Part shown: piece by piece, positions 8,798 through 55,365 of the stretch | Position numbering within the stretch: position 1 is the first letter of the stretch | Layout: every line of letters begins with the position of its first letter | Sequence record: MW748999.1 | Source of the DNA: Escherichia phage vB_EcoM_Skers | Reading direction: 5' to 3' (one strand) | Length of the DNA: 64,000 nt | The notes under the pieces: generated by a model | What the model was told of the DNA's origin: nothing | Seen by the model: only the letters and a program-made list of their open reading frames with translations | Databases searched by the model: none | Program-made: the position numbers and the translations under genes

Positions 8798-10849
8798 TTA
8801 CATTTTAAATTTATCTGGCATTGCGTCTACAGATACCAGATCAGCGATAAGCTGACGTAGAGTTGCCTTATCTGCTTTCTTACGTTCGGTTTTAGCTTCG
8901 GTAATAAAGCTGGAGAAAGACAGGTCAGAAGCAGGTTTAATAACACCTTCACGGATGAATGCATCACCGTCAGCGATCATCTCGCCAGATTCTTGTAATG
9001 CTGCCAGTTCATTTTTGTTCATAATATGTGCCTCAATGTAATAAGTTTCTTGTGAATCCGTCGATGCCGTAGCACGAGTTACCGTATCAAAGGATAGCAC
9101 AACACCGCGAGGAAGTAAAATCTCGCATTCTTTGTAAGCAAATGCTTTGTTACCTACTGGCAATACAGGGATGTTTTCCGCGCCAGCAATGGAGAAAGCA
9201 ACATTAGCGCCACCTTCACCGCGAGAGCCAGCCATAGAATCAACACCAGCAACGGCACTAGCCACGTTTGCATTCCAGCCGCCAAAAATGTTAGGTGCAA
9301 GGGAAGTGCTCACATAGTTTTTAAAGTAAAACGCTTTTTGCTTACGTGCAGTTTCCCACATTTGCGAACGGAAGTCCATACCACGATACAGAATAGTACC
9401 CGGATCAAGTTTAACGCCATAGTTAGAGAAGGCATTATCCAGTGCATCGCACATCTTGACCAATTCTTCTGGATCTGCGATGCCGTCAAACTCTTCCAGC
9501 TTACGGTCGGTTAGGAAGTTGTTCATATTGATGTATGCTGCATCGGCATATTCGCTCAACACAAAACCTTCCGCGCCCGGCAGATCAAGATCAATATCTG
9601 CCATCATTTCACCCATGTTGCTAGCAATTGCTTCAAACATACCGGAAGCAACATTACGTAGGGCATCGGTTTTAATCTGTGTGATGTGACTACGCAACAT
9701 TTCAGCTTTTACATCTGCTGGCATAGACTGGTCTACTCGATCCATTGCTATGGCAGTGATCTTGTTTTCGAATACGTCCTCGCTCATGATTTCTTTTAAG
9801 CGTTTGATTGATGCTGCGATAACTTCCGCAGACAACGGATCATATTGATCCTGAACTTTTACCAGTTCGCTTACTGCGTATTTTGCATCGGCTTCGCTTT
9901 CAAAAATAGTACGCATGAAACCATAGCGAGTGATAATATCACTTGTCCAGTCATTCAGAGAACGAGCGGTTGAACGTTCTAAGGCTTGACGATCAATCAG
10001 AGTATTAAACTGTTTCTTAGGTTCTGCTTCGGTGATATCTTCTTCCGGTTTAAGATTAATTTTTTCTGGATGATTCACATAGTCGCTGTTATAGGTCGCT
10101 TGAGTTTTCAGCATTTCTTCTTTAGTCAAACGAGATTTAGCCGCTACGCGTTGTTCTGCTTCCGCGTTTCGTTCTTCTTCTGACACAAGACTAGCCGCAT
10201 ATGCCTCATCTTTAGTCAGAGATTCACCAGTAGCCTTAGATACCCAGCGATCACCTAAATCACTTTCTACTTTAGTGAACAAGGATTCATCAAGTTTAAT
10301 CCCTTTAATCTTATCAATCGCCATCCCGCGACGCTTGACAACAACTAAAGCGATCTTTTTGCTGGTCATTACTTCCTGCTGGAATACTTCAAACTTCGGT
10401 GTACGACGCACCAAACGCTCTATAACGCGCTTAACCAGTTCGGTCTTACCCTTCATACGGGATACGTTAAAACGGAACATAACAGCGTCTAATTGCGCTT
10501 TACGGGCTGTTTCCATAACCACATCAAAAGCACTTGCCATAACTGCAATCGGGTTATCGCCTAGACCATTTTTAAGCTGTACAATACGACCGCTTTTGTT
10601 CATTTCGCACAGTACAACATGTGCGGTCTTGTCACCCATACGAATGATTTTAGGTGTTTTGTTGGTGAAGTTACAAAGACGGACAATCACATCTTTATCG
10701 CGTGTCTGTACTGCAAAAAGCTGTTTAGGATTCTGCTTAGGCTTTAAGCACTGTACCGGAGCAATACTGCCAAAGTTTTCTTCCTCTTCCGTCAACAGCC
10801 ATTTCTCGAAAGATTCAATCATTAGATCGTCGATTTCTAAGTTAAACAT
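8798..10849 (-). CDS. alt: Alt ADP-ribosyltransferase (packaged RNA polymerase modifier)
   Basis: 683 aa (T4 Alt is 682 aa); C-terminal LYRGMD, YVSTSLAPNIFGG, ECEILLPRG triad. Confidence 0.9.
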   Translation of the reverse strand: MFNLEIDDLMIESFEKWLLTEEEENFGSIAPVQCLKPKQNPKQLFAVQTRDKDVIVRLCNFTNKTPKIIRMGDKTAHVVLCEMNKSGRIVQLKNGLGDNPIAVMASAFDVVMETARKAQLDAVMFRFNVSRMKGKTELVKRVIERLVRRTPKFEVFQQEVMTSKKIALVVVKRRGMAIDKIKGIKLDESLFTKVESDLGDRWVSKATGESLTKDEAYAASLVSEEERNAEAEQRVAAKSRLTKEEMLKTQATYNSDYVNHPEKINLKPEEDITEAEPKKQFNTLIDRQALERSTARSLNDWTSDIITRYGFMRTIFESEADAKYAVSELVKVQDQYDPLSAEVIAASIKRLKEIMSEDVFENKITAIAMDRVDQSMPADVKAEMLRSHITQIKTDALRNVASGMFEAIASNMGEMMADIDLDLPGAEGFVLSEYADAAYINMNNFLTDRKLEEFDGIADPEELVKMCDALDNAFSNYGVKLDPGTILYRGMDFRSQMWETARKQKAFYFKNYVSTSLAPNIFGGWNANVASAVAGVDSMAGSRGEGGANVAFSIAGAENIPVLPVGNKAFAYKECEILLPRGVVLSFDTVTRATASTDSQETYYIEAHIMNKNELAALQESGEMIADGDAFIREGVIKPASDLSFSSFITEAKTERKKADKATLRQLIADLVSVDAMPDKFKM

Positions 10850-11199: not shown

Positions 11200-11379
11200 T
11201 TAGAACATTTTTGAAATTAATTCTGCTTTGATTTCGCAGAGAACATCTAAAGATTTCTCGTCACCTGCTTTTGCGGCTTCTGCTTGCATTTTTGAAATGG
11301 CTTCAATGTCAGTGCAATTATAAGCCGCTTGAACTTTAGCGATTGCGATGATTGCCGATTCGATGGTTAAGTGTTTCAT
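11200..11379 (-). CDS. Hypothetical small protein (59 aa), not in ORF track
   Basis: ATG at 11377-11379 with SD GGAGAATCAAAC; PeSL promoter upstream; translation MKHLTIESAIIAIAK.... Confidence 0.45.
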   Translation of the reverse strand: MKHLTIESAIIAIAKVQAAYNCTDIEAISKMQAEAAKAGDEKSLDVLCEIKAELISKMF

Positions 11380-11411
11380 GTTTGATTCTCCTTTCGTTTC
11401 GGTATGTGTGT

Positions 11412-11440
11412 ATTATAGGGGATCGATGATCCCCTGTCAA
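11412..11440 (-). promoter_or_regulatory. PeSL-type early promoter cassette
   Basis: TTGACA-N17-TATAAT with 17-nt palindromic spacer GGGGATCatcGATCCCC. Confidence 0.75.
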
Positions 11441-11447
11441 CAACTTT

Positions 11448-11966
11448 TTAGTTATTTTTTAATTGCTCATCTTGCAATAGGGCAATCACATGCTGGCGAT
11501 GCTCTTCCGATTGAGGCACACCGAAAAAGTTTGTTTTGTAGAAATACTCTAATCGGTCTTCTCGTGTGCTCTCTTCCATCATGATCGCTGGTAGTCCGAG
11601 ATTTCGGAAACGTCGCTTTTCTGCTGGAGTAAAATCACTGTAATACAACATAGAATCATCATTACCAGCAATGCTAAACTCATCCTTCATAAAGGAGAAT
11701 ATTGCGTTTAAACGCTGTTTACCGTCCACGATTTCGATCTCATAGCGAGAGCCATCATCAATCTTAGCCATTGCGATAGCACCAACCGGAAAATCATTAA
11801 TAAGGTTTTCGATAAACATACGTTTGTTTTCTGTGTCCCATACTAAAGGACGCTGATAATCTGGGTTCATGTTGATATAGCCATCTTCTAACCATGCATC
11901 ATAAACAGAGATGACAAAGTTTTTAGTATTGGTATAGTAACGGCGTTTAGGCGTTAAACGGTTCAT
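11448..11966 (-). CDS. DUF262 (ParB-like / GmrS N-domain-like) protein
   Basis: DGKQRL (DGQQR-type) motif and PDYQRPLVW; start trimmed to ATG 11966 with SD AGGAG; last gene of five-gene operon. Confidence 0.6.
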   Translation of the reverse strand: MNRLTPKRRYYTNTKNFVISVYDAWLEDGYINMNPDYQRPLVWDTENKRMFIENLINDFPVGAIAMAKIDDGSRYEIEIVDGKQRLNAIFSFMKDEFSIAGNDDSMLYYSDFTPAEKRRFRNLGLPAIMMEESTREDRLEYFYKTNFFGVPQSEEHRQHVIALLQDEQLKNN

Positions 11967-11967
11967 G

Positions 11968-12300
11968 TTATAGTCTCCTGAATGGATCATCACGTAAATC
12001 AATATCTTTTAAGAACTCCTCCCATGAATGGCGGATATTGTTCTTAATTCTCCAGATAAGAGCAGGGATTGAACGCTCTCCCATCTGGAAGTATGGATCA
12101 TATGATCCATATGCCCAATATGCTACTACAATTCCACAATCAGCGCAATAATATTCTATTTCACTTGCTGGCGACCAAAGTCCATCAATATGATCGGTGA
12201 TCTTGCTTTCGATGTTATGGCTATGACAATCAGGGCAACGGATGCAATGACCTTGTTTATCGTAATTTGACGTTAGAGAATACTTAAACAATCTCATCAT
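11968..12300 (-). CDS. Zinc-ribbon protein (110 aa)
   Basis: CIRCPDCHSH ... YYCADCG (CxxC ... CxxC); ATGA overlap with upstream gene. Confidence 0.6.
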   Translation of the reverse strand: MMRLFKYSLTSNYDKQGHCIRCPDCHSHNIESKITDHIDGLWSPASEIEYYCADCGIVVAYWAYGSYDPYFQMGERSIPALIWRIKNNIRHSWEEFLKDIDLRDDPFRRL

Positions 12301-13013
12301 AGATCCTTATTTGCTTCAAATACTGCCTTTGCGAATCCTCGCGGGGTAAGTGACCTTATAGTCTTTGTTTTCGTTCCTTTCCCGCCTAGCTTAGAATGCT
12401 GTTTACTGTACCCTTTATTAATCTGCAAAGGTTTCTTTTCTGGCATTATAAAGCCTTGTCCGGTCCATAAGCAAGTCTTTTTCGGGTACATATCACGGGC
12501 GGCAATATACTCAGGAAACGTAGGATGCTTATCATCTTCCGGCAAATAACCGCCATATTCCCACGGATGGAACATATAATCAGGCTTACGCCACATGCTA
12601 GAGATAACGCTTACAGGATTCTCTATCATGTAGGGAACTCCTAGCCATTCACCCAAATACGCGGTTATTTTGGCTGCCCTTACATCATGAACTTGAATCA
12701 ATGGTCCTTGTTCTCGTTTCTTTCGTTCAAAGTGCGCAGCGCCACTAACAGCTAAATTGGTGCACGGTGGGAATGCAAAGATAATATCCGGTTTCCCCCA
12801 TTCAAGGTCCATTGCTCTTTCCAGCCAGTTCAAATCAATCCAGGTGTTTACATAGGTAATGTTTGGATGTTCAAATCGGGTATTATACTTTTTGTATGTG
12901 CCGTGGTCGGCGTCATCCGCATTAAAGCAGACTACCTTATGACCTGCTTTAGCCCATTCTAGCCCCATTATCCCCGATCCGTCAAAGTTGCAGAATATTA
13001 ATTTTTGTTTCAT
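12297..13013 (-). CDS. Minimal C5-cytosine methyltransferase-fold protein (no target recognition domain)
   Basis: Motif I FDGSGIMG (FxGxG), motif IV FPPCTNLAVSG (PC catalytic Cys), motif VI ENP (ENV-like), C-terminal RSLTPRGFAKAV (R.LTPRE-like). Confidence 0.6.
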   Translation of the reverse strand: MKQKLIFCNFDGSGIMGLEWAKAGHKVVCFNADDADHGTYKKYNTRFEHPNITYVNTWIDLNWLERAMDLEWGKPDIIFAFPPCTNLAVSGAAHFERKKREQGPLIQVHDVRAAKITAYLGEWLGVPYMIENPVSVISSMWRKPDYMFHPWEYGGYLPEDDKHPTFPEYIAARDMYPKKTCLWTGQGFIMPEKKPLQINKGYSKQHSKLGGKGTKTKTIRSLTPRGFAKAVFEANKDL

Positions 13014-13255: not shown

Positions 13256-13503
13256 GCTGCCCCCATTGGTTTGATAGTAACAGAATCTAAAAGACCTTTG
13301 TTAGCCAGTTCGCGGCAAGTTTTCAGATCCGCAACTTCCCAGCCAGCCGCAATCAGGTTATCAATGAGGCTGTTAGCAACTTCTTCGCTCATGAAAGAGC
13401 ACTGTTTGCCGATGGTGTAGCGTACACGCTGTAATTTCAGTTTACGGAAGCCTTTAACGTTCAGGTCTTTAGCGATTTTCTTTGCGGTTTCGATGTTAGC
13501 CAT
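13252..13503 (-). CDS. Hypothetical protein (83 aa), first gene of operon
   Basis: ATG with SD AGGAG directly downstream of PeSL promoter. Confidence 0.6.
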   Translation of the reverse strand: MANIETAKKIAKDLNVKGFRKLKLQRVRYTIGKQCSFMSEEVANSLIDNLIAAGWEVADLKTCRELANKGLLDSVTIKPMGAA

Positions 13504-13543
13504 TGTTTGATTCTCCTAAGTGGTATCTCGTCTTGATGGTTGT

Positions 13544-13572
13544 ATTGTAGGGGAGTTATCCTCCCCTGTCAA
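13544..13572 (-). promoter_or_regulatory. PeSL-type early promoter cassette
   Basis: TTGACA-N17-TACAAT; spacer is the palindrome GGGGAGgataaCTCCCC. Confidence 0.75.
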
Positions 13573-13586
13573 CACTTTTTATAAAA

Positions 13587-13754
13587 TCATTTGTTAATTT
13601 CTGGTGCGTTGCTAGGATAGTAACCTTCTTTAACTCCGAGGTATTTCGCAACCATCCCTACAATCTTCTGTGCTACTACAATGTCAAATTTCAGATAATC
13701 TTCGCCGTGGGTTTCAATGATATATGCTTCACATGCTGCTTTCGTCTCGAACAT
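13587..13754 (-). CDS. Hypothetical small protein (55 aa); paralog of 16858..17025
   Basis: Start trimmed to ATG 13754 (MFETKAACEAY...); the ORF-track N-terminus runs into the promoter. Confidence 0.6.
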   Translation of the reverse strand: MFETKAACEAYIIETHGEDYLKFDIVVAQKIVGMVAKYLGVKEGYYPSNAPEINK

Positions 13755-13787
13755 TTTGATTCTCCTATATCTCGTTGGTATGTGTGT

Positions 13788-13815
13788 AGTATAGGGGATC
13801 ACCGATCCCCGTCAA
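13788..13815 (-). promoter_or_regulatory. PeSL-type early promoter cassette
   Basis: TTGACG-N16-TATACT with palindrome GGGATCggtGATCCC; almost identical to cassette at 17060..17088. Confidence 0.7.
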
Positions 13816-13829
13816 CAACTTTTTTAAAA

Positions 13830-14111
13830 TTATTCGTGATTAGTTTCGATGTTGTGCATTTTGCACCAGTTCAGCCAATCGCCCAGATCCTGATAGTTGA
13901 TGCTTTTATCTGCTGCCATCGTTTTTGTCTTGATACCCATATGTGCGTTATGAGTAAGCATTTTTACAGTGAACTCGATTTTATCGCCTTTAGCTTTAAC
14001 ATCAACCAGTTTGGTCCACTGGCTACCAGCGCCGCGAATGTTCATACCAACGATGTTTCCGATGTATGCTTCTTTGTTTTTCAGGATTTCGGTTGCTTTG
14101 ATGAATTTCAT
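13830..14111 (-). CDS. Hypothetical protein (93 aa)
   Basis: ORF with SD; PeSL promoter upstream. Confidence 0.6.
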   Translation of the reverse strand: MKFIKATEILKNKEAYIGNIVGMNIRGAGSQWTKLVDVKAKGDKIEFTVKMLTHNAHMGIKTKTMAADKSINYQDLGDWLNWCKMHNIETNHE

Positions 14112-14145
14112 TGTTTGATTCTCCAGTTCGTTTCGGTATGGGTGT

Positions 14146-14174
14146 ATTATGCTATGTTCTTACTTTGGTGTCAA
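14146..14174 (-). promoter_or_regulatory. PeSL-type early promoter (degenerate, no palindrome)
   Basis: TTGACA-N17-CATAAT; conserved UTR CGAAACGAACT. Confidence 0.65.
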
Positions 14175-14183
14175 CAACTTTTT

Positions 14184-14453
14184 TTAGATATTTTCAGAAA
14201 TAAATTTTAAAACTTGACGTAAATGTTTCTCATCTTTGATAGTCGCCGGAAGTTCTTCTTTTACTTCCTGTGCAAGATAGATATTTCCGTTCCAAGTGAA
14301 AGATCCGTCTTCGTTTACGCGATAGCTGAACATCCACTCGCAATCATTTTCGATTTCATATACACACAGAAGGGTGTAATCGTTAAAGCTATTGATTTCA
14401 AGGTCGAAGCCGTGGCGTTTTGCAAAGTTGGTAGTGGTTTTAGTCAGTGCCAT
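14184..14453 (-). CDS. Hypothetical protein (89 aa)
   Basis: ORF with SD AGGAG; promoter upstream. Confidence 0.6.
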   Translation of the reverse strand: MALTKTTTNFAKRHGFDLEINSFNDYTLLCVYEIENDCEWMFSYRVNEDGSFTWNGNIYLAQEVKEELPATIKDEKHLRQVLKFISENI

Positions 14454-14493
14454 TGTTTGATTCTCCTAAGTGGTATCTCGTTTCGATGTGTGT

Positions 14494-14522
14494 ATTATGC
14501 TATAGGCGTGATCTGGTGTCAA
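14494..14522 (-). promoter_or_regulatory. PeSL-type early promoter (degenerate)
   Basis: TTGACA-N17-CATAAT. Confidence 0.65.
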
Positions 14523-14540
14523 CAACTTTTTTAATTTTTT

Positions 14541-14573
14541 GGAAATAAAAAAAGCCGACACTAAGGTCGGCTA
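14541..14573 (-). terminator. Intrinsic terminator
   Basis: AGCCGAC-loop-GTCGGCT followed by TTTTTTTATTT on minus strand, after 14580..14891. Confidence 0.65.
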
Positions 14574-14579
14574 ATAAAA

Positions 14580-14891
14580 TCATTTAGACAAATAATCATT
14601 CTGTGCAATCCGGTCAGCATGTTCCGGCGTTACGTCAATTGCAATCACTTTAACGCGCGCTTTCTTGACTGAATTTTCTCGTAGCCAGTGCGTGTGAGCG
14701 TGCACATTTTTATATTTTGATGCTGATGCGGTTTCAAAGGTACGGATCGGACCAGGGTAATCAGCGTAAAGGATCTCTAGGTCATCGGTGATGTAAAAAT
14801 ATACATCATAATTACTGTTCTCTAGTTTAAGCAGAGACTTTCGGAACATTGGGAGATTTTCGCGGGTAAATTCAAAGATATTATCTTTCAT
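14580..14891 (-). CDS. HxHW-motif small protein family member (103 aa)
   Basis: Shared motifs YITDDL, HAHTHW, IAIDV. Confidence 0.6.
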   Translation of the reverse strand: MKDNIFEFTRENLPMFRKSLLKLENSNYDVYFYITDDLEILYADYPGPIRTFETASASKYKNVHAHTHWLRENSVKKARVKVIAIDVTPEHADRIAQNDYLSK

Positions 14892-14913
14892 AGTATTATC
14901 CTCAATAGTTGGA

Positions 14914-14936
14914 TGAAAAGGGGCGTTAACGCCCCC
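14914..14936 (-). terminator. Intrinsic terminator
   Basis: GGGGCGttaaCGCCCC followed by TTTTC on minus strand. Confidence 0.55.
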
Positions 14937-14941
14937 ATATA

Positions 14942-15229
14942 TTAAAACAGTCCTTCCTGTACACCGTAGTAGAGTTCATCGCTGATAATTTCATTAATGC
15001 GACGGTGTGCATATTCCTGATTTGCGAAGTTATCAGCAAGTTCTACTTTAGTTTCGCCGTCATGAGTCCATTTAGTGATAACTTTACCATCTGCAAATTT
15101 GAAGTTGAACTCTTTAGCTACCGCATCGCGTACCAGACGTGCAAACTTATTGTTGCGGATTGCATTGTCGGTTTCGTGTGCAGCGTGAGCGAATTTGTTA
15201 ACTTTCAGGGTGATAGTAATGTATGCCAT
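14942..15229 (-). CDS. Hypothetical protein (95 aa)
   Basis: ORF with SD; PeSL upstream. Confidence 0.6.
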   Translation of the reverse strand: MAYITITLKVNKFAHAAHETDNAIRNNKFARLVRDAVAKEFNFKFADGKVITKWTHDGETKVELADNFANQEYAHRRINEIISDELYYGVQEGLF

Positions 15230-15275
15230 AATTTGATTCTCCTAGTTAGAAAGTGTATCTCGTTTCGATGGGTGT

Positions 15276-15304
15276 ATTATGCTATACACCCGATCTTATG
15301 TCAA
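15276..15304 (-). promoter_or_regulatory. PeSL-type early promoter cassette
   Basis: TTGACA-N17-CATAAT; palindrome GGGTGTAT/ATACACCC. Confidence 0.7.
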
Positions 15305-15310
15305 CACTTT

Positions 15311-15589
15311 TTATAAAATAATTTTTTGATATTTTTCTATGATGTTCGTGTAAGTCACATCAACCGCTAGCACCGTTGCTTCGAATCCACCGTTTAGCCA
15401 ATGGCTATGATCATGATCGTGAAAGAAACCTAGACCAGTACGAAGACCTTCTTTATATTCTGCGCGTACATTCAGTTTGTCGTCGATAAACAGATAAAAC
15501 CATGAATTTTTACTAGGATTGATGATACAACCTTTCAGATTAGGGAGAATATCACGACTAAGAATAAACTTATCACCTACTTTGAACAT
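15311..15589 (-). CDS. HxHW-motif small protein family member (92 aa)
   Basis: FIDDKL, HDHSHW, LAVDV. Confidence 0.6.
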   Translation of the reverse strand: MFKVGDKFILSRDILPNLKGCIINPSKNSWFYLFIDDKLNVRAEYKEGLRTGLGFFHDHDHSHWLNGGFEATVLAVDVTYTNIIEKYQKIIL

Positions 15590-15603
15590 AATATTTTCCT
15601 CAC

Positions 15604-15912
15604 TTATAAAGTTTGACCGTTGTTTTTCGCATAATGCTTAATGCGTGCTTGATCTGCTTCCGCTGGTGATAGATTCCATGCAACCACTACAACTTCTGAC
15701 GCATCATGATCATTATCACTTACCCAATGATTATGATTCATACAATTGTTTGCTATCGCGTGAGTAAATGATCTCATTACCGGAGACGTATAATCATAGT
15801 AACGGATTTTCAGATTTTCATCAACGTACAAGTAGATCGTATACGGCTTATATTCAGTAACCAGTAACAGACAGTTACGCAATTCTGGGAAAATCTTTTT
15901 AGTTAATTTCAT
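15604..15912 (-). CDS. HxHW-motif small protein family member (103 aa)
   Basis: Start trimmed to ATG 15912 (SD GAGGA); YVDENL, NHNHW. Confidence 0.55.
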   Translation of the reverse strand: MKLTKKIFPELRNCLLLVTEYKPYTIYLYVDENLKIRYYDYTSPVMRSFTHAIANNCMNHNHWVSDNDHDASEVVVVAWNLSPAEADQARIKHYAKNNGQTL

Positions 15913-15913
15913 T

Positions 15914-16135
15914 TTATAATCCTCGGTCGCGGCTATAGTACACTGTACGCCATACAATTTCATGTTTCGTGTCGCTCCAGCACACGATCTCATTTACTCT
16001 TAAATCTTTGTTATCAACAAAAGATGAACATTGTGACGCTTCTTTCATCATTTTATCTGCTGTTTTCTCATCAAATACAGCACAGATTTCTTTATACACT
16101 CGATAATCTTTAAACTTGCTCATAATTAACACCAA
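15914..16135 (-). CDS. Hypothetical protein (73 aa); tandem paralog of 16126..16335
   Basis: Shared MSKFKDY...KMM.EAS.C.SF pattern with neighbouring gene. Confidence 0.55.
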   Translation of the reverse strand: MVLIMSKFKDYRVYKEICAVFDEKTADKMMKEASQCSSFVDNKDLRVNEIVCWSDTKHEIVWRTVYYSRDRGL

Positions 16136-16335
16136 TCAAGAGTTTTTGAAAACACATCTATCCATTGTTGAGTATATGCGGTTTCTTTCCATGACACAAT
16201 ACCAGTCGAATAATGGTTTTTGTTTCCAGAAAAGGACGGGCATTTTGATGCATCTTCCATCATCTTTTCGGCGAACTCTGGTGCGTATACTCGCAGGATC
16301 TGTTGATATGCTTTATAGTCTTTAAATTTGCTCAT
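16126..16335 (-). CDS. Hypothetical protein (69 aa); tandem paralog of 15914..16135
   Basis: See paralog. Confidence 0.55.
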   Translation of the reverse strand: MSKFKDYKAYQQILRVYAPEFAEKMMEDASKCPSFSGNKNHYSTGIVSWKETAYTQQWIDVFSKTLDWC

Positions 16336-16600
16336 AATCGTTAACTACCTTATCAGCTTCTTTTATTGTTTTTACATCAACTGCGATAATCCGTAAAGGT
16401 TCGTCGAAGGTCCACCAGTGGTCATGAATATCAGCTTGTGATTTATCACCAAAGGAATCACGAATATCATTTTTACATTTATAGCTAATGTGACCTTCAT
16501 AGTCAACATAAAGGTAATTATCGAAAATCGGCGTTTTTAAGATCATACCGAAAAATCTTTCTTTGTGTGTCTTATCCAGTGTTGCAGTAATTCGCATCAT
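16322..16600 (-). CDS. HxHW-motif small protein family member (92 aa)
   Basis: YVDYEG, HDHWW, IAVDV. Confidence 0.6.
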   Translation of the reverse strand: MMRITATLDKTHKERFFGMILKTPIFDNYLYVDYEGHISYKCKNDIRDSFGDKSQADIHDHWWTFDEPLRIIAVDVKTIKEADKVVNDYEQI

Positions 16601-16612
16601 AATATATTCCTC

Positions 16613-16792
16613 TTAGAAAGGGATGGTCATTTCTTGAGCTTGTACATTCTCGTTAGGATTAAACTTCATCCAACCGATATTGTCTACCAGCATATGCACA
16701 TTTTTATCATATCCTACGTGAGTAGTCAACACTAAATGTGCTTTACCTTCAACGATGATTTCCATGTACTTCTGAACTTCGATAGCTTTCAT
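16613..16792 (-). CDS. Hypothetical small protein (59 aa), not in ORF track
   Basis: ATG 16790-16792 after SD GGAGAATCAAAA and PeSL promoter; translation MKAIEVQKYMEIIVEGK.... Confidence 0.45.
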   Translation of the reverse strand: MKAIEVQKYMEIIVEGKAHLVLTTHVGYDKNVHMLVDNIGWMKFNPNENVQAQEMTIPF

Positions 16793-16825
16793 TTTTGATT
16801 CTCCGTTTGTTGTCTTGATGGGAGT

Positions 16826-16854
16826 ATATTACTACTCCCTTTAATCATTGTCAA
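16826..16854 (-). promoter_or_regulatory. PeSL-type early promoter cassette
   Basis: TTGACA -35; palindrome GGGAGTA/TACTCCC spans AT-rich -10. Confidence 0.65.
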
Positions 16855-16857
16855 CTA

Positions 16858-17025
16858 TTATTTGTTAATTTCCGGTGCGTTGCTCGGATAGTAACCTTCT
16901 TTAACACCCAGATATTTCGCAACCATTCCGGTGATCTTCTGTGCTACTACGATATCGAATTTCAGGTAGTCTTCACCGTGGTTTGCTACAATGTATGCTT
17001 CGCATTCTGCTTTAGTCTGGAACAT
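16858..17025 (-). CDS. Hypothetical small protein (55 aa); paralog of 13587..13754
   Basis: MFQTKAECEAYIVANHGEDYLKFDIVVAQK... near-identical to 13587..13754 product. Confidence 0.55.
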   Translation of the reverse strand: MFQTKAECEAYIVANHGEDYLKFDIVVAQKITGMVAKYLGVKEGYYPSNAPEINK

Positions 17026-17059
17026 TTTTGATTCTCCTATATCTCGTTGGTATGTGTGT

Positions 17060-17088
17060 AGTATAGGGGATCACCGATCCCCTGTCAA
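17060..17088 (-). promoter_or_regulatory. PeSL-type early promoter cassette
   Basis: TTGACA-N17-TATACT with palindromic spacer GGGGATCggtGATCCCC. Confidence 0.75.
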
Positions 17089-17096
17089 CAACTTTT

Positions 17097-17399
17097 TTAT
17101 TCTTCGTCTTTATCTTTATATGCGTATTTCATAAATTTGTCTGCTACTTCATCGGCATGTTCCGATTCTACGTCGGATTCGAGAACAATAGCAAGATCGG
17201 TTTCGTCGTTTCCGTCATACCAATGATTATGGGTATCGTTTTCTTCGATATAGAATGAGTCATTTGGAGTTGGACGACAATATACATCTAAATTCTCATC
17301 GATGTAAAAGATCCAATCTTCGTAAAGAATAACCGTATTAGCCAGATTTTTATTGCCTTCAACGAAAGGTTCAGCTACAAATAGCTTAGTTTGTTCCAT
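17097..17399 (-). CDS. HxHW-motif small protein family member (101 aa)
   Basis: Start trimmed to ATG 17399; YIDENL, THNHW. Confidence 0.55.
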   Translation of the reverse strand: MEQTKLFVAEPFVEGNKNLANTVILYEDWIFYIDENLDVYCRPTPNDSFYIEENDTHNHWYDGNDETDLAIVLESDVESEHADEVADKFMKYAYKDKDEE

Positions 17400-17415
17400 A
17401 ATATTTTCCTCAAAA

Positions 17416-17607
17416 TTATACAGCTTCGTAAACTTCCCAATGTTCAGCGCCAGCACGCTTAACGAAAAGGTTTTCTTTGATGTTATTCATAAACGTCTGG
17501 ATGGATTTAATGCGGTTGGAAGGTTTCCAGTCTTCGTTGGAATTGCGTCGATACATCATAACATTACCAGATCGCTTATATTCAGCAACCATTTTAAGAC
17601 CACACAT
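17416..17607 (-). CDS. Hypothetical protein (63 aa)
   Basis: ORF with SD GGAGG-like upstream. Confidence 0.5.
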   Translation of the reverse strand: MCGLKMVAEYKRSGNVMMYRRNSNEDWKPSNRIKSIQTFMNNIKENLFVKRAGAEHWEVYEAV

Positions 17608-17663
17608 AATATTATCCTCAATTTGTGGGAGAGTATTACCCTCCCGATTATTGTTATACTACA

Positions 17664-17966
17664 TTACGCAAAATGGCGTGTCAATGCTTCTTTTGCTGTT
17701 CCGCTAAGATTCTCGATCTCTCCTGGCATAACATCAACCGCCAGAACTTCTACAACATCCTCTGATCCTAACCAGTGAGTATGACCTTTGTAGAACTTGA
17801 TATCCCATTTATCGCTATCGCTAGCCCACCACACATCACCGTCGATAAAGTTGATGTAAAGCACACTACGACACATTGAATTAATTACTTTCAATACTGC
17901 GCCTTTCATATCTTCCACGGTATGGTCTTCCATTTTGAAGACCTCACCTACCTGAACTTTTGCCAT
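17664..17966 (-). CDS. HxHW-motif small protein family member (100 aa)
   Basis: GHTHW, LAVDV. Confidence 0.6.
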   Translation of the reverse strand: MAKVQVGEVFKMEDHTVEDMKGAVLKVINSMCRSVLYINFIDGDVWWASDSDKWDIKFYKGHTHWLGSEDVVEVLAVDVMPGEIENLSGTAKEALTRHFA

Positions 17967-17983
17967 TTAGTCACCTCTCTTTA

Positions 17984-18163
17984 TTACATAACAATCACGC
18001 CAGCCGTTGAAAGTTGATGTTTCAACTGAGCATTTTCTGCTACTGTCAAATCAATGATTTCTTGTGACGCTGCAATCATATAGCCATTGGTGATATTGTT
18101 TTTCATCAGTTCAATGGTTTCTTCGTTGTAGCGGATTTTAGCGATGATTTCGTTGAAGTTCAT
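17984..18163 (-). CDS. Hypothetical small protein (59 aa)
   Basis: Start trimmed to ATG 18163 downstream of PeSL promoter (MNFNEIIAKIRYN...). Confidence 0.5.
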   Translation of the reverse strand: MNFNEIIAKIRYNEETIELMKNNITNGYMIAASQEIIDLTVAENAQLKHQLSTAGVIVM

Positions 18164-18197
18164 GTTTGATTCTCCTAGTTCGTTTCGGTATGTGTGT

Positions 18198-18226
18198 AGT
18201 ATAGGGGATCGGTGATCCCCTGTCAA
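18198..18226 (-). promoter_or_regulatory. PeSL-type early promoter cassette
   Basis: TTGACA-N17-TATACT; spacer palindrome GGGGATCaccGATCCCC. Confidence 0.75.
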
Positions 18227-18239
18227 CAACTTTTTTGAA

Positions 18240-18716
18240 TTATTTTTCTTGATGCTCGCGCTCGTACTTTTCGAAATAAAATTCTACTGGCTGGTCGTGG
18301 ATTGACAGTAAGCCAAAGCGTTTAGCCGCTCGCAATCCCATATTGCGCTGAATGTACTTCTGGAAGTTCTCGCGTATACACTTACGCCAGTATTCTAAGC
18401 CCATACAGCTTTTATAAAGATTGCATTGCACACATGCCGGATTCATGTTATCAAGTATATCATGCTCCGGTTTATGCATTCCTACAACCTTATACTTCCA
18501 CGATCCATCATCATTACGGGCAATTCGTCCATTTTCATCATAGACTACCTTTGAGCGTCGCAATACTGGTTTGATGTGGTCTGCGTGCCAGCGATCCCCT
18601 AGTTCCTCGCCACAATAGGCACAACGTCCACCATATTTCATTTTCAGGATCTGGCGTTGCTCTTTCTTTGACAATTTTTTAGGTTTAGGGGCTTTCGCCC
18701 CTTCATTATCACACAT
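18240..18716 (-). CDS. HNH endonuclease
   Basis: CAYCGEEL ... WHADHIKPV ... NMNPACVQCNLYK (HNH / zinc-finger nuclease motif). Confidence 0.75.
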   Translation of the reverse strand: MCDNEGAKAPKPKKLSKKEQRQILKMKYGGRCAYCGEELGDRWHADHIKPVLRRSKVVYDENGRIARNDDGSWKYKVVGMHKPEHDILDNMNPACVQCNLYKSCMGLEYWRKCIRENFQKYIQRNMGLRAAKRFGLLSIHDQPVEFYFEKYEREHQEK

Positions 18717-20208
18717 CGAATACCTCTTTTACTGTATTTGCAGTGGTCTTGTCGTAGCGAATACGTTTGATGATCGGGAGAAATAAAGAGAACTCTGGTT
18801 CATCTTCTTTACGTGATTTGCTGCGGATATACCCGTTGCATGTCATCTCAATGACTTTTCCAATCAGGTTATGACGGTCAGCCCATAACATTTCTCGGTC
18901 AAGTTCATTTCTACGATCGAACGGAATCACACGTTCAATACCATCATCTTTTTCGGTTGTAGTGTCGGTCAATCCCGATCCGGTGTTGGTCATCATTCGT
19001 CCGCACGCACTACGGACAGTAAAACCGCCTACCTTATTAGGATCTTTACTATGCGGATATACATCAACAATTTCCGCGTCGAAGTCAATCACTTCTTTAA
19101 ATTTAACCTGATCTTTACTACGGCGATCTTCAAATACACCATGTAAATTTTTAAGGATAATACCTTCTAAGCCCATGTTTACATAGCGATGATATACTTC
19201 GCGAGCTTCATCTATATTGTTAACTACAGTGTTTTCGATTATCTGAACACGAGGATCGTTAAGTTCTTCAACAATCTGTTTTAGTTCTTCGAATCGATCT
19301 TTATATTGCTTCGTTGCTTTCTCGTTTCCGTAATACACATCACGGTCGATAACATCCCAGACAGTGTAAACAATACATTGGGCTTCTTCTTTTGGAATAG
19401 TTCCTTTCAGTGATTTGTTGAGGATACCATTTCCGGTCTGACGATCTGCAACAACGGATTCTTTTACTGCTTCCGCTACTGGCGTTAATGGCATTTCCTC
19501 TTCTTCAAATATCCATGACAGAGTACCATCATAAACGCTTTCAACGAAGTTCTGCGCTGGTGTTTGCGAAAGGGTAGGCATATATACCAATTCCCCATCT
19601 AGAACAATTCCACGGCCTCGTAGACGCTCTAAAACAGCAAACAAATCATCCAGCCCCTGATAGGTATTACCTGAACGGGTATAGATTGCTAATGTTTCCC
19701 CGTCAATATCAGCCATCCCACGAGCGCCATCGCTTTTAAGTTGTGCATACGCCGGATACTTGATATTAGCAATAGTCTTATCAGAACATGACGATGCAAG
19801 GTGGCACGGTTGCTGAGGGATCAGTTTCTTCCATACCTTGTTTGCAGTGGTAGCGGAACAACCGCATTCCAGATCACGATTCAGGACCATCATTGCAACT
19901 TTAGCATCATCTTCTGACAAGCAAGTCAGAGTATCGGTAACTAGCTGTAATGCTGCATTACCAGTTACTTGACGCGTGGCAAGTTTATTTTTAAAGACCT
20001 GTAATGCACCGGATAAAGACAATACAGACGAATAACGCGATGGTTTATCGTATTTCTTTACGCCAAACGTAACCTGTTTGCAATATGCCAGATAAAAACA
20101 TTCTTTCAGTGTTTCATTGCTTGCAGATTCTTTCAGGATCTTTTCTTTCAGCGATGTTTTGTCTGTTGCTGCAAGCTGGTTAATGATATTAAGAATTGAC
20201 ATTTTCAC
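18709..20208 (-). CDS. 30: ATP-dependent DNA ligase
   Basis: 499 aa; adenylation motif KSDGARG (KxDG); N-terminus resembles recalled T4 gp30. Confidence 0.9.
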   Translation of the reverse strand: MKMSILNIINQLAATDKTSLKEKILKESASNETLKECFYLAYCKQVTFGVKKYDKPSRYSSVLSLSGALQVFKNKLATRQVTGNAALQLVTDTLTCLSEDDAKVAMMVLNRDLECGCSATTANKVWKKLIPQQPCHLASSCSDKTIANIKYPAYAQLKSDGARGMADIDGETLAIYTRSGNTYQGLDDLFAVLERLRGRGIVLDGELVYMPTLSQTPAQNFVESVYDGTLSWIFEEEEMPLTPVAEAVKESVVADRQTGNGILNKSLKGTIPKEEAQCIVYTVWDVIDRDVYYGNEKATKQYKDRFEELKQIVEELNDPRVQIIENTVVNNIDEAREVYHRYVNMGLEGIILKNLHGVFEDRRSKDQVKFKEVIDFDAEIVDVYPHSKDPNKVGGFTVRSACGRMMTNTGSGLTDTTTEKDDGIERVIPFDRRNELDREMLWADRHNLIGKVIEMTCNGYIRSKSRKEDEPEFSLFLPIIKRIRYDKTTANTVKEVFDV

Positions 20209-54089: not shown

Positions 54090-54245
54090 TTAAATTTCTT
54101 CTACAGTAAAGTCTTCAATGTTGTTGTGCTCGGAGAACGTTGCCAAACCAGCATCCCATGCATCATCCTCAGAGAAGAATACACCGTAACGTTCATATCC
54201 CTTAGCGCCTTCAAATTTAACCATTAATTTGTGAGTATGTTTCAT
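54090..54245 (-). CDS. Hypothetical small protein (51 aa)
   Basis: Start trimmed to ATG 54245 downstream of PeSL promoter. Confidence 0.45.
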   Translation of the reverse strand: MKHTHKLMVKFEGAKGYERYGVFFSEDDAWDAGLATFSEHNNIEDFTVEEI

Positions 54246-54276
54246 TTTGATTCTCCTTCGTTGTCTTGATGAGTTT

Positions 54277-54305
54277 AGTATAGGGGATCGCCGATCCCCT
54301 GTCAA
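54277..54305 (-). promoter_or_regulatory. PeSL-type early promoter cassette
   Basis: TTGACA-N17-TATACT; spacer palindrome GGGGATCggcGATCCCC. Confidence 0.75.
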
Positions 54306-54319
54306 CCAGTTTTTAGAAA

Positions 54320-54580
54320 TTATTTTCGCCATTCACCGGAAACAATGAAGTTTGTAAAGTGATTGTGGTCCGTGATAATGTCATTAAGTACCATATGCGG
54401 ATATGCTTTAGTGTAATCACGTTTACGATCAGTCATCCAACCAACGAAAGTCGGTGCAAAGTACGGCACACCGTCAGATGATGCCATATTAAACCCTTTA
54501 TCAGCCATAAATGCAGCCGCCCTAAGATTTTTAATTGAAGTAGTGCGACTAATTTCAAAAACTTTATCAGTAAAATTCAT
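54320..54580 (-). CDS. Hypothetical protein (86 aa)
   Basis: ORF after PeSL promoter. Confidence 0.5.
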   Translation of the reverse strand: MNFTDKVFEISRTTSIKNLRAAAFMADKGFNMASSDGVPYFAPTFVGWMTDRKRDYTKAYPHMVLNDIITDHNHFTNFIVSGEWRK

Positions 54581-54792
54581 TTTAAGCCCCCCGCTCGTGC
54601 ATTAATACGCATTTTCTGAATAGCCATGATCTGGCTTACTGCTTCTTCTTTACGTTCTTGCGTGATAACGTGACCAGATTCCGCAAACTCTCCAGCAACT
54701 TCTTCTACGATCTCGCGAACTTGAGAACGTCCAAAGATGCGGTTTCCTTCGTAGCTCATAAACTCTGTTACTACTTGCTCGATAGATTTCAT
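54577..54792 (-). CDS. Hypothetical protein (71 aa)
   Basis: ORF with SD AGGAG after PeSL. Confidence 0.55.
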   Translation of the reverse strand: MKSIEQVVTEFMSYEGNRIFGRSQVREIVEEVAGEFAESGHVITQERKEEAVSQIMAIQKMRINARAGGLK

Positions 54793-54821
54793 GTGATTCT
54801 CCTTTTGTTTGGTATGGGAGT

Positions 54822-54850
54822 ATGTTACTACTCCCTTATCTTTACGTCAA
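54822..54850 (-). promoter_or_regulatory. PeSL-type early promoter cassette
   Basis: TTGACG -35; palindrome GGGAGTA/TACTCCC. Confidence 0.6.
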
Positions 54851-54857
54851 CTAGTTT

Positions 54858-55100
54858 TTAGAAATTTTTCGCTTCTTCTTCGGTCATCATCACCGCGCAT
54901 TCGTGCATAACTTTGAAAACCGGGTCAATCATATCGAATGCTTCGCGAGACAATTTACGAGAAGCGATTTTGATTGCTTCAACGTCTTCTACTACAGGAA
55001 CAAAAACAGTTTTCAGTTCATCGAGAACGGCAGCTTCTTTTTCATTCAGGAAGATTCCAGCGTCGTACAATGCAACTTCGATAACATTAACTTTAACCAT
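54858..55100 (-). CDS. Hypothetical protein (80 aa)
   Basis: Start trimmed to ATG 55100 (SD GGAGGAAATAAAA) after PeSL. Confidence 0.5.
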   Translation of the reverse strand: MVKVNVIEVALYDAGIFLNEKEAAVLDELKTVFVPVVEDVEAIKIASRKLSREAFDMIDPVFKVMHECAVMMTEEEAKNF

Positions 55101-55134
55101 TTTTATTTCCTCCAGTTCGTTTCGGTATGGGAGT

Positions 55135-55163
55135 ATAATACTACCGATGACCTTTGGCGTCAA
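55135..55163 (-). promoter_or_regulatory. PeSL-type early promoter (degenerate)
   Basis: TTGACG-N17-TATTAT. Confidence 0.5.
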
Positions 55164-55365
55164 CTAGTTTTTTGTTATTTTCGTGAAATTTTTTCGTCGC
55201 CTCATGTGCTTTTCGCTGGGCTTCTAGTTGTGCTTTCTGGCGTGCTGCCTCTTGTGAAGCCATAACGGAAGCATTTGCAGCAGTTACAGCCGCGACCATC
55301 GCTGCGGTATTAGCATTTACCGTACATGCACTAGCCAGCAAAGCAATCGCAATCATTTTCTTCAT
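55141..55365 (-). CDS. Small secreted protein (74 aa)
   Basis: N-terminal signal peptide MKKMIAIALLASACTVNA; Ala/Lys-rich mature region. Coordinates overlap the predicted promoter, so one of the two calls may be wrong. Confidence 0.45.
   Translation of the reverse strand: MKKMIAIALLASACTVNANTAAMVAAVTAANASVMASQEAARQKAQLEAQRKAHEATKKFHENNKKLVDAKGHR

Follow-up and report, generated by a model that had tools for sequence, protein, structure and literature searches.

What is encoded by the six small genes, annotated as "hypothetical" everywhere, that crowd between positions 14580 and 17966 of a 64,000-nucleotide (nt) stretch of the Escherichia phage vB_EcoM_Skers genome (MW748999.1; this whole stretch is hereafter the window): do they descend from one ancestor, how widely do they occur, and what might their products do? 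An initial annotation, made from the sequence alone, had proposed that they form a diversifying family of paralogs that share three motifs and are interleaved with promoter cassettes. Here, we show that all six belong to one family of small soluble proteins, as paralogs that diverged long ago, and we weigh the functions that such a family might serve.

The stretch 14000-18300 of the window belongs to Krischvirus, the RB49/phi1/JSE-type T4-like coliphages: it matched 58 phage records at 93-95% identity, all of them Krischvirus, and its RB49 counterpart lies at RB49 positions 117092-122891. Every gene of the array region is carried on the minus strand, and the array is bounded by a DNA methyltransferase gene (12297-13013) on one side and by the genes for an HNH endonuclease and the gp30 DNA ligase (18240-20208) on the other.

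Six anciently diverged paralogs of one family

All six open reading frames (ORFs) are present on the minus strand at exactly the coordinates first proposed, and encode proteins of 92-103 amino acids (aa):

14580..14891, minus strand: member 1, 103 aa; RB49p197 orthologue; phrog_9345
15311..15589, minus strand: member 2, 92 aa; RB49p199 orthologue; phrog_17255
15604..15912, minus strand: member 3, 102 aa; RB49p200 orthologue; phrog_9345; VVVAWNL replaces the AVDV motif
16322..16600, minus strand: member 4, 92 aa; RB49p203 orthologue; phrog_15972
17097..17399, minus strand: member 5, 100 aa; RB49p206 orthologue; phrog_15965
17664..17966, minus strand: member 6, 100 aa; RB49p208 orthologue; phrog_16486

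Members 3 and 5 begin at inner ATGs of longer, mechanically called ORFs; these starts are backed by the N-termini of their orthologues (MKLTKK... and MEQTKLF...), and GAGG-type Shine-Dalgarno sequences lie 6-9 nt before them. Each of the six genes has its own Shine-Dalgarno site (ttGAGGataatact-ATG in the case of member 1), so that every copy carries a good ribosome-binding site.

In a MAFFT alignment of the six proteins, the three motifs follow one another collinearly and the H-x-H-W motif is invariant. The motif order described in the initial annotation is thus genuinely shared, down to the VVVAWNL of member 3 which it had singled out; its third pattern does not extend to member 5, which reads VLESDV at that position. 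The pattern H.HW has exactly six matches among the 625 six-frame ORFs of the window (53,177 residues), all confined to the six family genes, against a mean of 0.64 and a maximum of 4 in residue shuffles. The composite pattern of all three motifs again matches the six genes only, and had no match in 200 shuffles. The motif matches are therefore both collinear and far beyond what shuffled controls yield.

The paralogs are only 18-33% identical to each other, and pairwise BLAST is strong for members 1 versus 3 alone (52 bits), with the others marginal. Since most pairs were marginal by this measure, leave-one-group-out profile hidden Markov models (HMMs) were built from orthologue-enriched alignments, with one paralog group omitted each time, and searched against the ORFs of the window. 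The held-out member was recovered in every instance, with E-values of 9.4e-14 for member 1, 1.1e-8 for member 2, 5.2e-14 for member 3, 7.6e-7 for member 4, 1e-7 for member 5 and 2.6e-7 for member 6. In each case it was the best non-training ORF of the window, the next ORF having an E-value of 0.04 or worse. The collinear alignment, the shuffle controls and the held-out HMMs together bear out the proposal of a six-member paralogous family. The HMMs found no seventh member in the 64 kb window, and hhalign comparisons of 12 other small ORFs of the region with the family profile revealed no hidden members (probabilities of at most 1.2%).

In PHROGs, the six members are spread over five families, all of unknown function; each member matches its own PHROG with an E-value between 1e-43 and 1e-65, and the cross-hits that link the groups are weak (7e-5 and 3e-4). 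The merger of these five PHROGs into one family with a common fold is new.

A predicted alpha+beta fold built around the shared motifs

AlphaFold2, run with a 45-sequence alignment, gave models of member 1 (predicted local distance difference test score, pLDDT, 80; predicted template modelling score, pTM, 0.77) and member 2 (pLDDT 90.9; pTM 0.86) that share the same order of elements: a strand, a helix, three strands, a variable loop, a short helix, a strand and a C-terminal helix. The short helix begins at H-x-H-W in both. The Y-I/V-D motif is predicted to form the end of the third strand and the hairpin turn, H-W the short helix and V-L-A-x-D/N-V the last strand. Thus, in these models, the three motifs form the core of a confidently predicted alpha+beta fold, and they occupy the same rather than unrelated structural contexts in the two proteins.

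No solved structure significantly matched the predicted family fold. In BFVD, the significant matches were only to independently modelled Krischvirus paralogs (E 1e-7 to 1e-3). The JSE protein C4MZ33 matches at a probability of 0.96 and, judged by its size of 88 aa, is most likely EpJSE_00215, an extra gene of JSE (L006 2801-3067, 88 aa) whose product is a borderline remote relative (hhalign P 1.6e-4) that retains the second His and has neither the first His nor the Trp.

The family is found in Krischvirus and in metagenomic contigs

When 5.8 billion proteins were searched by word index, 87 hits came back, each of them 72% or more identical to one of the six, and the same kind of search with a broadened 33-sequence profile added one sequence. 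An exhaustive hmmsearch of 1.84 billion cluster representatives recovered 21 proteins at E <=1e-3; a 532-aa repeat protein among them is probably spurious, and the remainder are Krischvirus or metagenomic only, with the more distant new members coming from metagenomic contigs. Similarly, tblastn matched Krischvirus records only, and a scan of IMG/VR with the member-5 subgroup matched just one Krischvirus uncultivated virus genome (UViG). By these sequence searches, then, the family is restricted to Krischvirus and metagenomic contigs, in keeping with the first impression that it is not a family known from T4.

The tblastn searches covered members 1, 2, 4, 5 and 6, with no separate search for member 3. 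Among ~58 genomes, members 1 and 4 were each present in 56, member 2 in 53, and members 5 and 6 in 55 each. Six of the seven genomes inspected in detail carry all six members in the same order, JSE being the exception.

The only informative long contig among the metagenomic ones is L008 (20 kb), which comes from a close uncultured T4-like relative: its ligase is 72.7% identical to that of Krischvirus, and two family members sit in the same ligase-to-alt interval. Two further orphans of the window, the 93-aa and 95-aa ORFs at 13830-14111 and 14942-15229, also have clear homologues in L008 (7528-7815 and 9122-9409), beside its family members; therefore, several orphans travel together across lineages.

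A shorter metagenomic contig, L010 (2.1 kb), holds five family domains in four adjacent ORFs. The ORF at 823-1434 (P0089) encodes a 203-aa protein in which two family domains are joined head to tail. Two single-domain members come after it, their stop and start codons overlapping, and another member lies two ORFs upstream.

Purifying selection and rare turnover

The ratio of nonsynonymous to synonymous substitution rates (dN/dS), computed among 6-8 genomes per paralog, is 0.20 for member 1, 0.075 for member 2, 0.17 for member 3, 0.12 for member 4, 0.17 for member 5 and 0.073 for member 6. Every paralog is a real gene kept by purifying selection and, because dN/dS is low (0.07-0.20) for each of them, not currently diversifying. 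Member 5 stands apart in its dS, which is 0.62 among Krischvirus isolates as against 0.11-0.25 for the other five. Member 5 also falls into two or more allele classes (THNHW and TSNHW), and both features suggest that this one gene has recombined with divergent alleles.

Turnover is present yet rare. In JSE, member 2 is missing, and two divergent member-3-like genes share 46% and 53% identity with member 3; these, EpJSE_00205 and 00206 (L006 4918-5241 and 5256-5591), lie where the others carry members 3 and 2. Member 1 is frameshifted in JSE and kvi, and a variant allele of member 4, only 56% identical, is found in Phi1 and four other records. Finally, a 150-kb uncultivated Krischvirus genome (L011; IMGVR_UViG_3300045988_033703), 96-97% identical to the window, is without window positions 13416-15387 (~2 kb; junction at its locus ~8959-9135). 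The gap takes out member 1 along with four further ORFs and cuts member 2 short immediately behind its HSHW; it may reflect either a genuine deletion or an error of assembly.

The initial description of the family as "diversifying" does not hold as it was worded, given the age of the paralogs as seen in their low mutual identity, the low dN/dS, the wide retention and the rarity of turnover. The variation in copy number among related phages, for which it proposed a test, amounts to rare loss, frameshift and replacement, and each of the five searched paralogs persists in 53-56 of the ~58 genomes.

Early promoters and transcription units

The initial annotation was right that the genes are interleaved with promoter cassettes, as minus-strand sigma-70-type promoters with 11 of 12 consensus positions lie among them. 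The cassettes are the published promoter-early stem-loop (PeSL) elements, conserved stretches of about 60-100 bp known from RB49 and phi1 (Arbiol et al. 2010, PMC2839356). Such promoters are found at 18226, 17088, 15304, 14522, 14174 and 13572; stem-loops are visible in the sequence of the cassettes, and a repeat of 62-76 nt, with six copies in the region (families D1/D3), carries the promoters. The transcription signals around the six genes are:

18198..18226, minus strand: PeSL early promoter, TTGACA-17-TATACT, with a GGGGATC..GATCCCC stem-loop between the hexamers; repeat families D1/D3
17656..17684, minus strand: weaker internal promoter-like site (10/12), overlapping the 3' end of member 6, upstream of a 63-aa ORF and member 5
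17060..17088, minus strand: PeSL early promoter, 11/12 consensus match
16826..16854, minus strand: weaker internal promoter-like site (10/12), upstream of a 59-aa ORF and member 4
15276..15304, minus strand: PeSL early promoter, TTGACA-17-CATAAT
14553..14572, minus strand: intrinsic-terminator-like hairpin, AGCCGAC..GTCGGCT then T7, just past the member 1 stop codon
14494..14522, minus strand: PeSL promoter downstream of member 1, the limit of the array on the low-coordinate side

The array consists of three units, each with a strong sigma-70-type PeSL early promoter at its head:

Unit from promoter 18226: 60-aa ORF, member 6, 63-aa ORF, member 5
Unit from promoter 17088: 55-aa ORF, 59-aa ORF, member 4, two 69-aa paralogs, member 3, member 2
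Unit from promoter 15304: 95-aa ORF, member 1 as the final gene, terminator 14572-14553

Members 1, 2 and 5 are each the last gene ahead of the next PeSL, and a PeSL promoter directly follows the stop codon of member 2 and, likewise, member 5. The breakpoints of the L011 loss fall inside genes, away from PeSLs.

The PeSL -35-box motif AAAAGTTGTTGACA (with at most three mismatches) clusters also at ~11201-11448 and ~54090-55171 (minus strand), which are presumably further hyperplastic regions. Two other paralog pairs occur in the neighbourhood. The first, at 13587-13757 and 16858-17025 (both minus strand), encodes ~55-aa proteins that are 89% identical and share MF(E/Q)TKA.CEAY...YPSNAPEINK; each gene lies just downstream of a PeSL, the DNA repeat (D2) is 84% identical over 172 nt, and the pair looks like a recent PeSL-associated duplication. 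The second consists of the tandem 69-aa paralogs between members 4 and 3 (15914-16123 and 16126-16335, minus strand), both of which begin MSKFKDY... and which are 44% identical (E 2e-18) and have no Pfam match. At the edge of the array, the HNH endonuclease gene (18240-18716, minus strand) overlaps the start of the gp30 ligase gene; at its position, ELT3 and kvi have a 477-nt gene annotated as hypothetical.

What might the family do?

We lean tentatively toward a reading whose chances we judge to be a little under even: that these proteins are not enzymes but act early by binding or inhibiting host factors, each paralog with its own target. They would be made immediately after infection from the PeSL early promoters and act as binding or inhibitor modules, with host defence or toxin proteins as the most plausible targets by analogy with small early proteins of T4. 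The conserved residues would hold the scaffold together, and the target proper to each paralog would be set by the variable loop beside the H-W helix and the stretch that follows this helix, together with the termini and the surface charge. It is in the loop before H-x-H-W, the segment after the W and the termini that the variation among orthologues is concentrated. The isoelectric point (pI) is ~6.9 for members 1-3, 5.45 for member 4, 4.9 for member 6 and 4.07 for member 5, and net charge runs from 0 to -20 across the paralogs, member 5 being at -20. The unit may act as a dimer, as suggested by the two-domain fusion and the tightly adjacent paralogs. Single copies are dispensable in natural genomes, as the cases of frameshift, deletion and replacement attest. 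No enzyme signature emerged from scans of up to 45 members against Pfam, NCBIfam, PADLOC and PDB sequences. Two points weigh against the binding or inhibitor reading: a residue with a purely structural role would not usually be an invariant His, which keeps a ligand or metal role in play, and a literature search found no partner, phenotype or expression record for the family.

Such a role would have the H-x-H, possibly with the Asp of the Y-I-D and A-V-D-V motifs or across a dimer, bind a metal or a small, nucleotide-type ligand, making the family one of small metalloproteins, enzymes or signal sponges; we consider this unlikely, though by no means negligible. Across 33 diverse sequences, the second His and the Trp are the only invariant residues and the first His is kept in at least 90%. 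The His run is longer in members 1 and 2 (HAHTHW, HDHDHSHW), and dimers, at which the two-domain fusion hints, could complete a four-His site. However, the first His is replaced by Ser (TSNHW) in the member-5 alleles of RB49, kvi, ELT3, MIZ6 and JSE and is missing in P0088, and its loss in natural alleles weakens the idea of a metal site. The candidate partner Asp positions likewise vary across the family (D, N, G, T, H), member 1 having T, member 6 having N and the position after the last strand being D, N or G. The conserved motifs also fall on secondary-structure elements at the core of the predicted fold, a further point that weakens the idea of a site. Moreover, only two invariant residues are too few for a catalytic site, and no metal-enzyme family or fold was matched; scans of up to 45 members against Pfam, NCBIfam, PADLOC and PDB sequences returned nothing above threshold.

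Three particular assignments of this kind were considered and rejected. For the JAB/MPN (JAMM) metalloproteases, PROCT reached 18.7 bits against a cut-off of 23.6, in the member-2 group only (4 of 45 sequences), and the family has neither the JAMM motif E..H-S/T-H-x7-S-x2-D nor an MPN structural neighbour. The HIT hydrolases fail on motif chemistry and on fold, as neither the H-phi-H-phi-H-phi-phi motif nor the HIT fold is present. Matches to cupins are at chance level (vicilin, E 1.6; Cupin_2, E 0.2 in 1 of 45 sequences), and a cupin requires a beta-barrel of six or more strands with two cupin motifs (G-x5-H-x-H-x3,4-E), whereas the model has five short strands and helices.

A further alternative, in our judgement distinctly unlikely, casts the proteins as SH3/KOW-like beta-barrel regulators that bind nucleic acid, RNA polymerase or the ribosome and thereby redirect early host transcription or translation. 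The depositor of a metagenomic member 2 orthologue gave it the label "KOW2-KOW3 domains of Spt5", and the five short strands of the member 2 model come in an SH3-like order; yet no KOW or SH3 Pfam hit was obtained, and the proteins are neutral to strongly acidic, with a range of net charge that is wrong for direct nucleic-acid binding.

Least likely, with very little probability in our estimate, is that the genes are largely functionless or selfish cargo of PeSL-mediated shuffling that hitch-hikes on the promoter cassettes and contributes little to fitness: the region is the exact site of the described PeSL mini-circles and of ORFan gain or loss, and copies have been frameshifted (member 1, JSE/kvi), lost or truncated (members 1/2, L011) and replaced (JSE), but every paralog is under purifying selection, the five searched paralogs are widely retained, the gene order is kept in the genomes inspected except JSE, each copy has its good ribosome-binding site and the family is conserved in a relative as distant as L008.

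The binding or inhibitor reading has a bolder form, which we regard as speculative and rather doubtful: the family could be a new fold class of phage counter-defence proteins, with six immunity-like inhibitors or H-W-pocket sponges each directed against a different E. coli defence toxin or signal. If true, such an array would compensate for a T4-type cytosine modification that Krischvirus DNA is not known to carry. An anti-defence role would add a new inhibitor fold and a case of paralogs that subfunctionalised in one phage genome over a long time; otherwise, this is a tidy, ordinary orphan family in a region of already described plasticity. Either way, six "hypothetical proteins" become one tractable target in the Krischviruses, which are common therapeutic-candidate coliphages and about a third of whose genes are orphans.

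Relationship to known systems

Among small inhibitor and immunity proteins, we set beside the family fold Tis1 (PA14_01140; 6ox6_B), the immunity protein of the type VI effector Tas1, and the DUF2829-type anti-defence proteins Tad2 (9eib_A) and AcrIIA7 (8kbi_A). The family had no significant sequence or structure match to DUF2829. SH3-like ribosomal proteins were set beside it as well.

A closer parallel in circumstance is offered by T4 Dmd, Arn and IPI, small early anti-defence or host-takeover proteins that are non-essential, expressed from early promoters and encoded in variable regions, and some of which are highly acidic. The Krischvirus family resembles them in size, early promoters and location, and member 5 in its acidity, without any sequence or structural relationship; none of the three is known to form a six-paralog array.

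Two known groupings concern these very genes. PHROGs 9345, 17255, 15972, 15965 and 16486 hold the same proteins, there split into five groups of unknown function. The PeSL-flanked ORFan genes of the hyperplastic regions of RB49 and phi1 (Arbiol et al. 2010, PMC2839356; Comeau et al. 2014, PMC4122927) include the very same region, RB49 ORFs 192 and 210 of the former study flanking the array. They are alike in kind: small orphan early genes between sigma-70 promoter and stem-loop cassettes, in an RB49-like hyperplastic region, with no homologues outside the phage group apart from metagenomic sequences. The text of that study (PMC2839356) never mentions paralogs or gene families, its lone "duplicate" referring to duplicate cultures, and the 2006 RB49 genome paper reports paralogy solely for alt-like and motB-like ORFs. 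A literature search under the RB49 locus tags or phrog_9345 found no paper mentioning the family. The region, its PeSL architecture and its plasticity are already known; what is new is that six paralogs are recognised as one family, together with the account of how narrowly it is distributed, how selection acts on it and what fold it is predicted to have. On present evidence, this is a new orphan family of a familiar kind, that of small early accessory genes in a T4-type hyperplastic region, and not a new kind of system; in contrast to the variable cassettes that have been stressed for the PeSL-flanked ORFans, its six genes constitute a conserved, ordered set.

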